64,000 nt of DNA from Parachlamydiaceae bacterium (lineage in GTDB: Bacteria; Chlamydiota; Chlamydiia; Chlamydiales; Parachlamydiaceae): contig JBAWVE010000001.1 in assembly GCA_037147435.1 (NCBI GenBank), positions 464 through 64,463 on the forward strand, given 5' to 3'. The notes below the pieces were generated by a model. The model was not told the origin of the DNA, searched no databases, and saw nothing but the letters and a program-made list of their open reading frames with translations. Shown piece after piece: positions 55,673 to 58,552 of the stretch. Positions within the stretch are counted from its first letter, which is position 1; every line of letters begins with the position of its first letter. Made by a program: the position numbers and the translations under genes.

Positions 55673-56299
55673 CTACTTGTCCGCCGACTTGTCCGGTAAA
55701 AAGTTCTTCAATCGATATTCTATTTTTGGCAATCCATCAGATTCATATCGTACAAAAACAAGTGTTCCGGACAAGTTGTTTGAAATAGGTTGAACACGAT
55801 GGTTTTTGAAATGCGCCTCTAATAAAAAACCTAATCGCTTAGGAATAGCAGCGCTTTTTGTATTTTTTGGGTCACAGCGTATTTCAATGCGTTTAGCATC
55901 CCAAATGGAAAAGGCATGCTGTGTCAGCATATTAACAGCTTCGGTAATGAGTCCATCTCCAGAATGCTGGTTGTTCGCCCAATAACCCACTTCAAATGCA
56001 GGAACTTTCCAATTAATAGCATTAAATCCAGCAGAACCAATCAAATTTTCCTCATTCGCATCAAAAATCAACAATGGCAGTTCTTCTGGATCTTCTATCG
56101 ACCAACACTTTTGTGAAAATTCAATATAAACTTTCGTTTCTTCTATTGATGGTGGCTTGATGGCCCATTCCATCCATTCATGCAACTTATCAAACGAATC
56201 TAAAATTGCTTGATTTAACAAAAACTCATCTCCATTCATGTGTGGGCGGATACAGATTCTTGAGCTGGTAAGAACGCAAGGGGTAATTTTGTGTTTCAT
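55673..56299 (-). CDS. GNAT acetyltransferase (RimJ/RimL-like), last gene of a coupled four-gene operon
   Basis: 208 aa. Typical RimL-type layout (ICIRPHMNGDEF...IGSAGFNAINWKVPAFEVGYWANNQHSGDGLITEAV...RIEIRCDPKNTKSAAIPKRLGF). ATGA start/stop overlap with the upstream gene. Confidence 0.65.
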   Translation of the reverse strand: MKHKITPCVLTSSRICIRPHMNGDEFLLNQAILDSFDKLHEWMEWAIKPPSIEETKVYIEFSQKCWSIEDPEELPLLIFDANEENLIGSAGFNAINWKVPAFEVGYWANNQHSGDGLITEAVNMLTQHAFSIWDAKRIEIRCDPKNTKSAAIPKRLGFLLEAHFKNHRVQPISNNLSGTLVFVRYESDGLPKIEYRLKNFLPDKSADK

Positions 56300-57174
56300 T
56301 GTTTTGCTCTATCTAGTTTTGGCGGCGCATAAGCAATTTCGCCAAGTTCGCTTAAAAAATCCCATTCAGAGTAGCGTTCGTATCCATTAAGATCGGTAAG
56401 AAAAGTTGTATTTGGAGTTCTGCAAATGATGTTTGAGATTCTCACGCCATGCTTGCCCGCTTCATCTTGATAATGTTCCAATTTTTCAAGTAGACTCCTT
56501 TCAAGCATCTCTTCCGTTTGGACATCAGAGCATAGAAAAATAAATTTAAGCTCAAATAGGTCTGCAATATCAGCGCGAGGTTGCCAGTCGAGATAAATAA
56601 AGGACACTGATTCGTGGATCGGAGAGCCTTTGTTTTGACCATGTGTTTGCTTTTCATCAAGACACTTTAGGATGAGTGTCAAAAGCTCGGGTTTCACGCG
56701 CTCTACCAACAGATTTGGAAGCGCTATGCGTGTATAAGAGCGACCAAGCCATCCAGCTAACCTTGTTGAACCTTCCATGCCAATTTCAAATTCTTGTAAT
56801 GGGTTGATATTGAGAAGAAGATGTCTATCAAAGAAGAATCGTCGATTTATGTCACACTCAATGCATTTAAACTCAGAACTGCCAATCACCTCAATATGAA
56901 GTTTTCGTTGATTTTTTCCAGTGGCTTCAAAAGCCTTCGAGTTGTATTTAGGAAGTAGCTTAACGACCATGGCTTCAACGATAGGATCTGTTGCAAATCT
57001 AGATGACACGACCGTGCAGGATTGTGTGCATAGAACGAGAAGTTCGCCATCTGTCAATTGAATATTCTCTACAATACCACGTAGATCAAAAATTGCACCT
57101 TGGCGCCAACCTTTATCTAAGATTGTTTTTGCGCAGGCGATGTCAGGATCATCCTTTTTTAATTTATGAGTCAT
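56296..57174 (-). CDS. Hypothetical protein (292 aa), no recognisable motif
   Basis: ORF overlapping its upstream neighbour by 11 nt and its downstream neighbour by 4 nt. Confidence 0.6.
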   Translation of the reverse strand: MTHKLKKDDPDIACAKTILDKGWRQGAIFDLRGIVENIQLTDGELLVLCTQSCTVVSSRFATDPIVEAMVVKLLPKYNSKAFEATGKNQRKLHIEVIGSSEFKCIECDINRRFFFDRHLLLNINPLQEFEIGMEGSTRLAGWLGRSYTRIALPNLLVERVKPELLTLILKCLDEKQTHGQNKGSPIHESVSFIYLDWQPRADIADLFELKFIFLCSDVQTEEMLERSLLEKLEHYQDEAGKHGVRISNIICRTPNTTFLTDLNGYERYSEWDFLSELGEIAYAPPKLDRAKQ

Positions 57175-57760
57175 AGGAGGTAGTCACCTCGCGAGATTCC
57201 CGCAAAAAGGAGTTGGACTTAATAGAGGAGGTGGAGGTGCCTAAACCTTCTCGAATTTCTTCCTTCTTAGCCAGTGGCCAAAGTTGAGACAGTGCGTTGC
57301 GAATGGACATCTTGTCTAAAACTTTTGCTTGCAGCATAGAGGCAAGAGATTGTTCCCCTATAATGTTACGAGACCAAAATCGATAAAGATGGCGAAGACT
57401 CGTGAGCTTATTTTCATTCAGCAAAGAGTAGACTTTTTCTAACCGTTCTTGATTGTGAACTTTCACAGCACCGCCACTCAGCCAGGCATATACAGATTTT
57501 CTTTCAACCCCTGCAATTTCAGCTATAACCGCTATAGGGATGCCCTCTTCCCTTAGCCAAGTAACAATTTCTTGGCTAGATAGGGAAGGACGTTTTACTA
57601 CTTCAGCAGTTCCAAAGTATGCAGTTCGCTGTTTAATCCACATTTGGGGTCGAAGCATGAATTCGGTTGCGCCATTAGATGAAGTTCCAAAAACACATCC
57701 AAGCCCAATAATCGCTCCTGCATAAGGAGCAGTAAAAGATCCCGCTTGTAAAAAATGCAT
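57164..57760 (-). CDS. HTH-containing protein (Xre-like; C-terminal part faintly resembles the Xre/MbcA/ParS antitoxin toxin-binding domain)
   Basis: HTH IAVIAEIAGVERKSVYAWLSGG. C-terminal segment LRHLYRFWSRNIIGEQSLASMLQAKVLDKMSIRNALSQL. Confidence 0.55.
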   Translation of the reverse strand: MHFLQAGSFTAPYAGAIIGLGCVFGTSSNGATEFMLRPQMWIKQRTAYFGTAEVVKRPSLSSQEIVTWLREEGIPIAVIAEIAGVERKSVYAWLSGGAVKVHNQERLEKVYSLLNENKLTSLRHLYRFWSRNIIGEQSLASMLQAKVLDKMSIRNALSQLWPLAKKEEIREGLGTSTSSIKSNSFLRESREVTTSYDS

Positions 57761-57763
57761 TCT

Positions 57764-58552
57764 TTACCCCCAAGCCGCGTGTGAAAATTTGGTTCCAACA
57801 GAAATGAAAACCTCTTTAGATATTCCACGAAGTTCTTTTAGATGTTTTAATATCTCTTTGGTTTTCATACTCGCAGGCTGAGAAAATGTAATGCTATGAT
57901 CGATATCTATGAGCGCGAAATCAGTTTCTGGGCGACTTTGAATCCATCCATTTTTGACAATAAGAGGAGATTGAAGTTCAGGAGGAAGCGTATATTGAGG
58001 GTTACGCATAGATTGAAGCCTTAATTCTCCTATATCTGTCTTATAACGGGCAACGTAAGCACCCTCAATGATTGACAATTGTGATCGAGGTGGCTCAGTG
58101 GGAAGAACCCAAGAATCTAAATAGTCTTTCAGTGAGTGCTTGTCCTTTGTAACCACTAAATTGACATAACGTATTCCTATTGCAGTCATCCAATCGATGG
58201 CAATTCCTGGTACTTTCAAGAAAGCTTCAAGTCCTTTTTGAAATCGATTAGAAAAACTAGGGAAGTCGCAATAGTCTACTGTATGTAGACATAAGGCTTG
58301 TTCAGTTAAAATAAAGCCGCACTTTCGGTCCACTGACATAAACTGCCATAGCTTACTTTCATGTTGTCCTATTTGAATTCCTTGAGGACTAAAATCGGCG
58401 TTAAAAACGGGAACTTTGACTTCGTCGACGAGAGGATATTCATTTCGGATTTTATCCAAAAATAGATCGATGAATCGCTCTATTCCAGGTACCTTGGGAA
58501 ATTGAATCATTCCAAGGGTGTAGATAAGTGGCGCATTTTTCAAAGCCGTCAT
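57764..58552 (-). CDS. TIGR04255-like protein of unknown function
   Basis: The ATG at 58552 follows AGTGGAGGTGA. The N-terminus MTALKNAPLIYTLGMIQFPKVPGIERFIDLF and a length of about 263 aa fit my recollection of the sporadically distributed TIGR04255 family. Confidence 0.5.
   Translation of the reverse strand: MTALKNAPLIYTLGMIQFPKVPGIERFIDLFLDKIRNEYPLVDEVKVPVFNADFSPQGIQIGQHESKLWQFMSVDRKCGFILTEQALCLHTVDYCDFPSFSNRFQKGLEAFLKVPGIAIDWMTAIGIRYVNLVVTKDKHSLKDYLDSWVLPTEPPRSQLSIIEGAYVARYKTDIGELRLQSMRNPQYTLPPELQSPLIVKNGWIQSRPETDFALIDIDHSITFSQPASMKTKEILKHLKELRGISKEVFISVGTKFSHAAWG

Follow-up and report, generated by a model that had tools for sequence, protein, structure and literature searches.

In SecB-based toxin-antitoxin-chaperone (TAC) systems, one chaperone family serves HigBA, MqsRA, HicAB or CmdTA pairs (PMC5105189; bioRxiv 10.1101/2024.02.24.581848), and the chaperone can double as a phage sensor (bioRxiv 10.1101/2024.02.24.581848). 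Here we describe a gene cluster of a Parachlamydiaceae bacterium, located in a 64,000-nt stretch of contig JBAWVE010000001.1 (contig positions 464 to 64,463; this whole stretch is referred to as the window, and positions are counted from its first nucleotide). Four genes, g1 to g4, follow one another on the minus strand; their products are a protein of the TIGR04255 family, a helix-turn-helix (HTH) protein, a protein of an unannotated family and an acetyltransferase of the Gcn5-related N-acetyltransferase (GNAT) type. A preliminary description of this DNA had proposed that the four genes constitute a toxin-antitoxin (TA), abortive-infection or defence module which had not been described as a unit. 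Our analysis suggests, with moderate confidence, that positions 56296-58622 of the window are a self-contained, horizontally mobile cassette of only three genes, g1, g2 and g3, which represents a tripartite type II TA or abortive-infection-type module. Thus, the proposal can be kept for a three-gene module, the third slot of which may also be occupied by PemK or Doc, but not for the GNAT gene and not for the suggested link to DUF2384 and RES proteins. The combination of one antitoxin scaffold with unrelated toxin families is reported for hyperpromiscuous antitoxin modules (the Panacea/PanA concept of Kurata et al., 2022).

Conservation and mobility of the three-gene cassette

The trio g1-g2-g3 recurs in constant order in approximately 45 independent loci; g3-side, g1-side and plasmid searches yielded approximately 41 full loci with tight junctions. 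According to record title or taxonomy line, at least four phyla are represented (Chlamydiota, Acidobacteriota, Alpha-, Beta- and Gammaproteobacteria, and Cyanobacteriota). A word-indexed search yielded 39 relatives of g3, and each contig that could be inspected contained the same ordered trio with products of approximately 262, 190-200 and 285-300 aa. A scan of one genome per species led to 24 loci, and hidden Markov models (HMMs) built from our own alignments were run on all open reading frames (ORFs) of these loci. The trio was present in every full-length locus, the hosts including Terracidiphilus (Acidobacteriota), Methylobacterium, Rhizobium, Methylobacter, Methylicorpusculum, Methyloglobulus, Pseudomonas and Caballeronia. 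Plasmid searches with g3 or g1 detected it in Mesorhizobium, Vibrio furnissii, Gloeocapsopsis, Chroococcidiopsis, Rhizobium etli, Klebsiella pneumoniae, Acinetobacter baumannii and Pseudomonas putida, and several copies are located on conjugative plasmids. The same picture emerged from a g1-side metagenome search and from four more divergent g1 relatives. In plasmid-borne trios, the labels given by the Prokaryotic Genome Annotation Pipeline (PGAP) read 'TIGR04255 family protein', 'HTH' or 'hypothetical', and 'hypothetical'. Of the four families whose co-occurrence was in question, g1, g2 and g3 show strict co-conservation between phyla and are located in changing, often mobile surroundings, while g4 is not co-conserved.

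The flanks of the cassette differ from contig to contig. They comprise ribosomal protein genes, type I restriction-modification genes, ankyrin and leucine-rich repeat (LRR) genes, RelE/HTH together with a ligase, Ntox50/MafI2 together with an integrase, TIR-WD40 and RuvC; further neighbours across the loci are VapBC, PIN, PrlF/YhaV, integrases and insertion sequence (IS) elements. When 106 neighbouring ORFs were scanned as a pool, the outcome was mixed, with integrases, transposases, a UvrD/GajB-like helicase, a type I S subunit and PDC-S13, plus many metabolic genes. At the nucleotide level, similarity to the next relatives is restricted to the three genes and approximately 70 nt upstream (Table 1; the corresponding limits for locus L001 are 56327-58606). 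Since the similarity is confined in this way and the flanks are unrelated, we conclude that the cassette travels as a unit.

Direct reading of the sequence bore out the coordinates, the strand and the packing of the four genes as they had been described. The genes g1 and g2 are separated by a 3-nt gap (TAA, aga, ATG), g2 and g3 overlap by 11 nt (ATGACTCATAA), and g3 and g4 are connected by an ATGA overlap; the strong Shine-Dalgarno sequence noticed ahead of the first gene was likewise found (Table 1). The 3-nt gap and the 11-nt overlap return in homologous cassettes of just about 75% nucleotide identity (L001, L003 and L004) and also in L007 and L056. Because the same spacing is kept in cassettes which have diverged to about 75% identity, the g1/g2 and g2/g3 junctions exceed what would be expected by chance.

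Two of the clinical plasmids with the trio have additional features. In K. pneumoniae pVA126-339 it lies 3 kb from a tape-measure gene, and this plasmid may be a phage-plasmid, while in P. putida p716811-VIM the distance to a separate RES-family toxin pair, encoded on the other strand, is 1.6 kb. Since K. pneumoniae, A. baumannii and P. putida carry homologues on clinical plasmids (in P. putida the VIM plasmid), the cassette could, if the proposed model is correct, play a part in plasmid maintenance or phage resistance there. In 5,426 complete genomes of E. coli, there was no DNA-level match to the Vibrio cassette.

GenBank phages contained no match to g3, and IMG/VR contained no match to g1. 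In a 207-kb record labelled as phage (L062, CAKLQF020000006.1, 'Acinetobacter phage MD-2021a'), OmpA and sortase-system genes are neighbours of the trio; the record looks like chromosomal DNA of a bacterium in an assembly with a phage label. A phage origin of the cassette was rejected, since these phage libraries gave no g3 or g1 matches and the sole match in a phage record resembles bacterial DNA.

Exchange and decay of the third gene

In two loci, g1 and g2 are kept and the third gene encodes a known toxin. The third gene of L046 (5363-5752) codes for a 129-aa PemK_toxin protein (E 1.7e-27) and overlaps the 3' end of g2, and that of L047 (5457-5849) codes for a 130-aa Fic/Doc protein (E 3e-19) and starts 88 nt downstream of g2. 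PemK is not accompanied by a MazE gene of its own in L046, and neither is Doc by a Phd gene in L047. Convergent with the Doc gene is a 96-aa ORF (L047 5836-6126, minus strand), which by eye is similar to XRE antitoxins (...FDDFLKEEGIL...) and has no Pfam match at E<=0.001.

The core of g2, from the HTH through ...LWPLAKK, is conserved in L046 and L047, and the last 25 residues or so differ. The pattern N-[PS]-x-[FL]-x-[DE]-x-x-E is common to the g2 tails linked to g3; with PemK, the last residues of the tail are ...SDGSDDW, and with Doc the tail shows no relation to the others. MazE likewise uses an acidic tail with Trp at its end. The change of the g2 tail with the toxin is expected if the tail is the toxin-neutralising element.

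In five loci (L016, L042, L043, L045 and L057), g1 and g2 are full-length and g3 is 3'-truncated or nearly lost. Isolated g3 fragments were found in L018, L026 and L028. The fragment in L018 (OY969795.1 1828803-1841138, there at 6001-6935) is a partial second copy in the genome of the closest relative. It consists of g3 residues 180-291 and the GNAT gene, is separated by 14 kb from the full cassette of that genome, and is fused to DNA with a match in the RHS region of the window (60274-61441). Together, the start of the L018 copy at residue 180 and the truncation of the L016 copy at residue 189 suggest recombination inside g3 near residues 180-190.

The g3 family and its predicted fold

The preliminary description regarded g3 as an orphan. 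It is indeed without a known domain: there was no match in Pfam, NCBIfam, PADLOC or PHROG, and g3 together with 19 homologues gave no significant Pfam match, including RES (PF08808), ADP-ribosyltransferase (ART) families and PF02452. However, an exhaustive profile search revealed that g3 belongs to a family of 1,562 clusters at 50% identity (E<=1e-3; 742 clusters at E<=1e-10), and a Pfam domain was absent from all ten members that were sampled. In addition, structure prediction followed by a Foldseek search returned a MazF/PemK-like fold for this 292-aa protein. The AlphaFold2 (AF2) model, with a predicted local distance difference test (pLDDT) value of 80, is composed of an N-terminal MazF/PemK-like barrel (residues ~20-125), a helical linker and a small C-terminal alpha/beta domain (~185-270). 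The top 25 Foldseek matches in the PDB were all MazF/PemK proteins (probability 0.85-0.99, E ~0.02-0.07, template modelling (TM) score by target 0.47-0.60); since approximately 125 columns are aligned, the match corresponds to the N-terminal half of g3. Independently, the viral library BFVD yielded PemK/MazF-like phage proteins for the same model. At the level of the fold, the N-terminal half of g3 is thus predicted to have the SH3-like barrel of the MazF/Kid/CcdB type.

A link between g3 and MazF at the level of sequence was rejected, because the Pfam scans, two PDB profile searches (with the full-length g3 alignment and with an N-domain alignment of 46 sequences) and hhalign against E. coli MazF (sequence identical to PDB 3nfc_A; probability 0.3) were all negative. 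Over 80 divergent family members, W23, Q25, C53 and P153 are invariant, and P64, E67, R90, R112, W142, Y147, R149, A151, E202, Y207 and D272 are nearly so. As judged from the alignment, R24, T50/Q51/C53, R90 and R112 are conserved candidates for MazF-like catalytic positions. The by-eye correspondence of G-W-R-Q-G and C-T-Q-S-C in g3 with G-H-R-P and C-T-T-Q-S in MazF was not relied on, because its register is ambiguous and C53 alone is invariant when the wider family is considered. A Cys4 zinc site (C49, C53, C104 and C107) was also rejected, since C49 and C104 are not conserved.

The HTH protein g2 and the upstream element

The g2 protein can be divided into a poorly conserved N-terminal part of approximately 55 aa, an HTH of the Xre/Cro type (~60-100), a helical region (~105-165) and an acidic C-terminal tail (~175-198). 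The protein from the window has sub-threshold HTH matches only in Pfam; in distant homologues, the scores for HTH_19, Phage_CI_repr and HTH_3 attain the curated cut-offs, and the HTH core VERKSVYAWL is invariant in the family alignment. A hydrophobic stretch of 13-20 residues is present among the N-terminal 60 or so residues (window 57580-57760) in 12 of 21 homologues. Some of the g2 N-termini, for example those of the A. baumannii and P. putida copies, resemble signal peptides or transmembrane helices. This N-terminal segment is a possible docking element for g1.

The short block TGTGTTTAGTAGAGTGTATAGT directly upstream of the Shine-Dalgarno sequence (Table 1) is unique in the window, with 0 chance matches expected, and in 16 fetched loci it occurs once per locus, just upstream of g1. 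It is non-coding, because an indel in L001 breaks the reading frame. From its position and conservation, it is a candidate for the promoter-proximal (-10) region or for an operator of the cassette. Scanning of the minus strand upstream of g1 for sigma-70-like sites gave none at threshold. The short palindrome TTGCAATGCAA (58596-58606) was dropped, since it is not conserved in relatives, and Rfam had no match in 55400-59000.

The constant first gene g1

Assignment of g1 to the TIGR04255 family, proposed earlier from resemblance, was confirmed with 100.3 bits against the NCBIfam profile (cut-off 30, E 1.5e-28), the match covering 2-252 of 252 profile positions. The protein also matches PHROG 35157, the function of which is unassigned in PHROG. 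It has no Pfam match, SecB included, and a PDB profile search detected no relative. The AF2 model (pLDDT 91.6, predicted TM score (pTM) 0.88) displays a duplicated beta-alpha-beta4-alpha fold. Residues P8, Y94, F100, R128, D216, D218 and F249 are invariant over 29 divergent homologues. Present in every cassette, g1 also accompanies g2 where the third slot is occupied by PemK or Doc. Because it stays when the toxin is exchanged, we consider g1 to be tied to g2 and not to a particular toxin. No paper mentioning 'TIGR04255' or its InterPro synonyms was found in the literature covered, which is a part of the whole, and an earlier description under another name is possible.

Proposed mechanism

Several traits of the locus are those of type II TA systems. 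The genes are co-directional and coupled, an HTH antitoxin candidate is located upstream of a toxin candidate with the 11-nt overlap kept in relatives, the third slot is exchangeable with known toxins, and the distribution is patchy and mobile. We favour the interpretation as a TA or abortive-infection-type module because of the co-conservation and mobility of the trio, the swaps in the toxin slot, the co-variation of the g2 tail, the fold of g3, the asymmetric decay of g3, the HTH of g2 and the cis element.

Within this module, we infer toxicity of g3, its neutralisation and DNA binding by g2, and a role of g1 in the cassette. As the effector, g3 would act through its MazF/PemK/CcdB-type barrel, most likely by cleavage of RNA or by binding of another essential target, and its C-terminal alpha/beta domain may serve regulation or oligomerisation. 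As the antitoxin, g2 would repress the operon by its central Xre-type HTH, probably at the conserved block by the ribosome-binding site, while its acidic, toxin-type-specific C-terminal tail would block the toxin. The protein g1 would be an obligate partner of g2, which either stabilises it in the manner of a SecB chaperone, as in TAC, or senses a trigger and releases the toxin.

A further-reaching proposal, which we put forward as speculation, is that TIGR04255 proteins are a new class of antitoxin-dedicated partners (chaperones or phage sensors) and form with the Xre-HTH scaffold a portable 'control unit', arming g3-family proteins, PemK and Doc as trigger-responsive abortive-infection systems. 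Such a unit, which occurs on Klebsiella, Acinetobacter, Pseudomonas and Vibrio plasmids, would correspond in function to SecB-based TAC while relying on a fold that is not related to SecB. Apart from this speculation, the tripartite model itself, if it holds, would be important for several reasons. It would provide a function for TIGR04255, a sporadic family of 'hypothetical' proteins, and for an unannotated family that exceeds 1,500 clusters at 50% identity. It would reveal a new toxin architecture, in which a MazF-like barrel is combined with extra domains. Last, it would be a second, structurally unrelated case of three-component control of toxin-antitoxin pairs.

Alternative explanations

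A number of observations weigh against a TA or abortive-infection function. The likeness of g3 to MazF is at the fold level alone and on a predicted model (Foldseek E 1e-3 to 0.1, root-mean-square deviation ~5 A), an HMM or hhalign signal between the two is absent, and PF02452 is not matched. Foldseek matches of g1 are weak (TBP, AdoMetDC/prozyme, Med18/20 and EspG; TM score 0.1-0.4) and give no clear functional lead, and the hydrophobic N-terminal segment of g2 is limited to 12 of the 21 homologues. The truncated g3 copies keep the MazF-like domain, although a toxin could be inactivated in simpler ways. A swapped toxin was seen in just two of approximately 50 loci, and the Doc gene of L047, with its 88-nt gap after g2, may be an independent insertion. 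The association with defence islands is just moderate: TA and restriction-modification neighbours exist in some loci, but many cassettes adjoin housekeeping genes (rpL13/S9, RuvC and metabolic genes), so that the defence-island signal is modest. Further, PADLOC 2.0 has no model for any trio protein (no match for g1, g3 and g4, and for g2 at most a weak HTH match to mad1), and the trios of Pseudomonas, Methylobacter and Rhizobium similarly lack system matches in PADLOC-DB 2.0.

Several of these points would also fit a non-toxic regulatory or enzymatic cassette, in which g2 is an ordinary transcription factor over benign g1 and g3 proteins, for example of a mobile stress-response or nucleic-acid-processing pathway. 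The many copies among housekeeping genes, the missing PADLOC matches of the trio and a likeness of g3 to MazF that is confined to the fold level agree with such a cassette, and the conserved polar residues R128, D216 and D218 of the g1 beta-sheet would suit an enzyme or a ligand binder. We nevertheless regard it as unlikely, although it is the best of the alternatives, since it would be hard to explain, other than by a toxin slot, why canonical PemK and Doc take the place of g3 downstream of the same g1-g2 pair. The change of the g2 tail with the toxin type, the repeated decay of g3 beside intact g1 and g2, and the patchy, cassette-wise distribution with plasmid copies beside other TA loci argue in the same direction, and we keep the TA or abortive-infection-type module as the preferred interpretation.

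The second alternative takes all four genes as one functional module, in which the modifying enzyme g4 is part of the TA or defence mechanism. The ATGA overlap and the shared strand imply co-transcription and translational coupling of g3 and g4 in this genome, and the same junction exists in L011 and in the partial copy L018. However, a tblastn search located g4 after g3 only in the window and in L011 and L018, which both originate from one closely related genome, and g4 was absent downstream of g3 in all other loci examined (approximately 45), even in L012 with its cassette of 88% nucleotide identity. It is also less conserved than g3: between the window and L011, g4 has 84% and g3 97% amino acid identity. 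As the nucleotide synteny of L012 and L001 with the window stops at 56317-56327, i.e. at the end of g3, and g4 occurs only in the closest relative, the g3/g4 overlap is real but lineage-specific. The protein was expected to be a RimL-type acetyltransferase. That it is a GNAT was confirmed by PF13302 (Acetyltransf_3; E 7e-23, 82.3 bits), but with 49.6 bits it stays far under the cut-off of 184 for the RimL equivalog NF007539, so it is a generic RimJ/RimL-like member of this group. GNAT toxins, such as those of TacAT and AtaRT, are accompanied by DUF1778-type partners, and g4 has no partner of this type. A functional unit of four genes is thus highly improbable, and the conserved unit consists of three genes. 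On the basis of these comparisons, g4 appears to be a local passenger captured downstream in this Parachlamydiaceae lineage, in which it would be co-transcribed with the cassette. In annotation, the GNAT gene of this locus should not be read as a member of the module.

The third alternative was connected with the assumption that g2 harbours, besides its HTH, a toxin-binding domain of the DUF2384 type. An Xre-type HTH is supported by the distant homologues that reach the cut-offs, but the DUF2384 domain (PF09722) was found in none of 32 g2 members scanned: at E<=1 there was no match for the protein from the window and none for ten distant members, and at E<=10 PF09722 was missing from the list of the 25 families with most matches in 22 family members. 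By eye, the segment ...LYRFW(S/N)xP..G..SL..L....LD... of g2 resembles the W..P..G..P..L pattern of DUF2384. Five of the ten distant g2 proteins matched the Xre-like HTH PF20432 below threshold (best E 2.3e-4; 21.8 bits, with the cut-off at 25.8), three of the ten did so for the middle domain PF23125, and the protein from the window matched neither. An Xre-DUF2384 system of the ParST, MbcTA or Xre-RES type, with g3 as a divergent RES/ADP-ribosyltransferase-type toxin, has this by-eye likeness and these sub-threshold matches in its favour, but it is hardly credible in view of the missing PF09722, of a PDB search with the g2 profile that found no relative of MbcA or ParS, and of the Pfam scans in which g3 had no RES or ART match while its model resembles MazF/PemK.

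Surroundings of the cassette in the window

The setting between an IS-disrupted transporter and an RHS gene agrees with what had been described (IS4/Tn5-type transposase on one side, RHS ORF from 58821 on the other). The transposase (Tnp_DNA_bind, DDE_Tnp_1 and Dimer_Tnp_Tn5) is encoded at 52004-53338, in front of a truncated ABC ATPase gene. The latter is a 3' fragment, corresponding to the last ~30 positions of ABC_tran and the DrrA C-terminal domain, and is followed by two ABC-2 permease genes (window 52004-55641 for the whole region). This ABC transporter operon, split by the IS element, is probably inactivated. Divergent from g1, an ORF with DUF6531 and RHS repeats, at least 1726 aa long, occupies 58821-64000 on the plus strand and runs past the end of the window; the toxic C-terminal tip of the RHS protein and any immunity gene lie beyond it. 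The closest relative of the region is an uncultured Parachlamydiaceae metagenome-assembled genome (OY969795.1) with 92.5% nucleotide identity over 7.5 kb. The sole tRNA gene of the window encodes tRNA-Met (CAT) and is located at 36668-36742 on the plus strand. The features of the locus are listed in Table 1.

Table 1. Positions of the genes and signals of the locus in the window.
Feature	Position	Strand	Description
g1	57764-58552	minus	262 aa from ATG after GGAGGTGA; TIGR04255 family, constant first gene of the cassette
g2	57164-57760	minus	198 aa; HTH protein; proposed antitoxin and autorepressor
g3	56296-57174	minus	292 aa; large unannotated family; proposed toxin/effector
g4	55673-56299	minus	208 aa; GNAT (Acetyltransf_3); putative lineage-specific passenger
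Shine-Dalgarno sequence GGAGGTG	58558-58564	minus	5 nt before the g1 ATG (58552); kept in L012, L016 and L001
22-nt block TGTGTTTAGTAGAGTGTATAGT	58565-58586	minus	directly 5' of the Shine-Dalgarno sequence; kept in relatives, sequence further upstream not kept
Extent of the transferable cassette	56317-58622	minus	only stretch of the window common to L012 (88% nt) and L001 (75% nt); blastn

Comparison with known systems

Multi-component type II TA systems are a known kind of module. We could not find the composition TIGR04255, HTH protein and g3 described as a unit, and keyword searches for three-gene MazF-like or Xre systems in the part of the literature that was covered gave nothing relevant.

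MbcTA and ParST are similar to the cassette in having an HTH antitoxin of approximately 150-200 aa upstream of a larger toxin, and distant g2 proteins show weak, sub-threshold Xre-like HTH matches. They differ in that PF09722 is not detected in g2, the toxin is not of the RES/ART type and an extra first gene is present here.

The MazEF/PemIK (Kid-Kis) systems have more in common with it. The model of the g3 N-terminal part matches MazF/PemK, the antitoxin gene is upstream of the toxin gene and overlaps it, the antitoxin has an acidic C-terminal tail, and a true PemK occupies the third slot in L046. In contrast to MazF and PemK, g3 comprises approximately 290 aa, including a helical linker and a C-terminal domain as additional parts, and is without a PF02452 signal or detectable MazF sequence similarity. 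Further, the antitoxin candidate has an Xre HTH instead of an AbrB or ribbon-helix-helix fold, and the third gene, g1, is obligatory.

With Panacea/PanA the cassette shares the principle that one scaffold is combined with unrelated toxin families. However, the scaffold consists of two proteins here (TIGR04255 and HTH), DUF4065 is absent, and three toxin types have been seen so far.

By analogy, the nearest described logic appears to be that of SecB-based TAC. There are clear differences: g1 does not resemble SecB but belongs to the TIGR04255 family and has, in its model, a duplicated alpha/beta fold like that of TBP, and the gene order is accessory protein, antitoxin, toxin. In TAC, the chaperone-addiction (ChAD) element is a C-terminal extension of the antitoxin, whereas the C-terminal tail of g2 varies with the toxin, and just one candidate element for binding of the accessory protein exists, the variable, often hydrophobic N-terminus. 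On the other hand, both comprise three co-transcribed genes, both combine a constant antitoxin-associated accessory protein with a variable toxin (here g3-type, PemK or Doc), and both have a mobile, patchy distribution. The TAC chaperone acting as a phage sensor thus offers a concrete model for what g1 may do.

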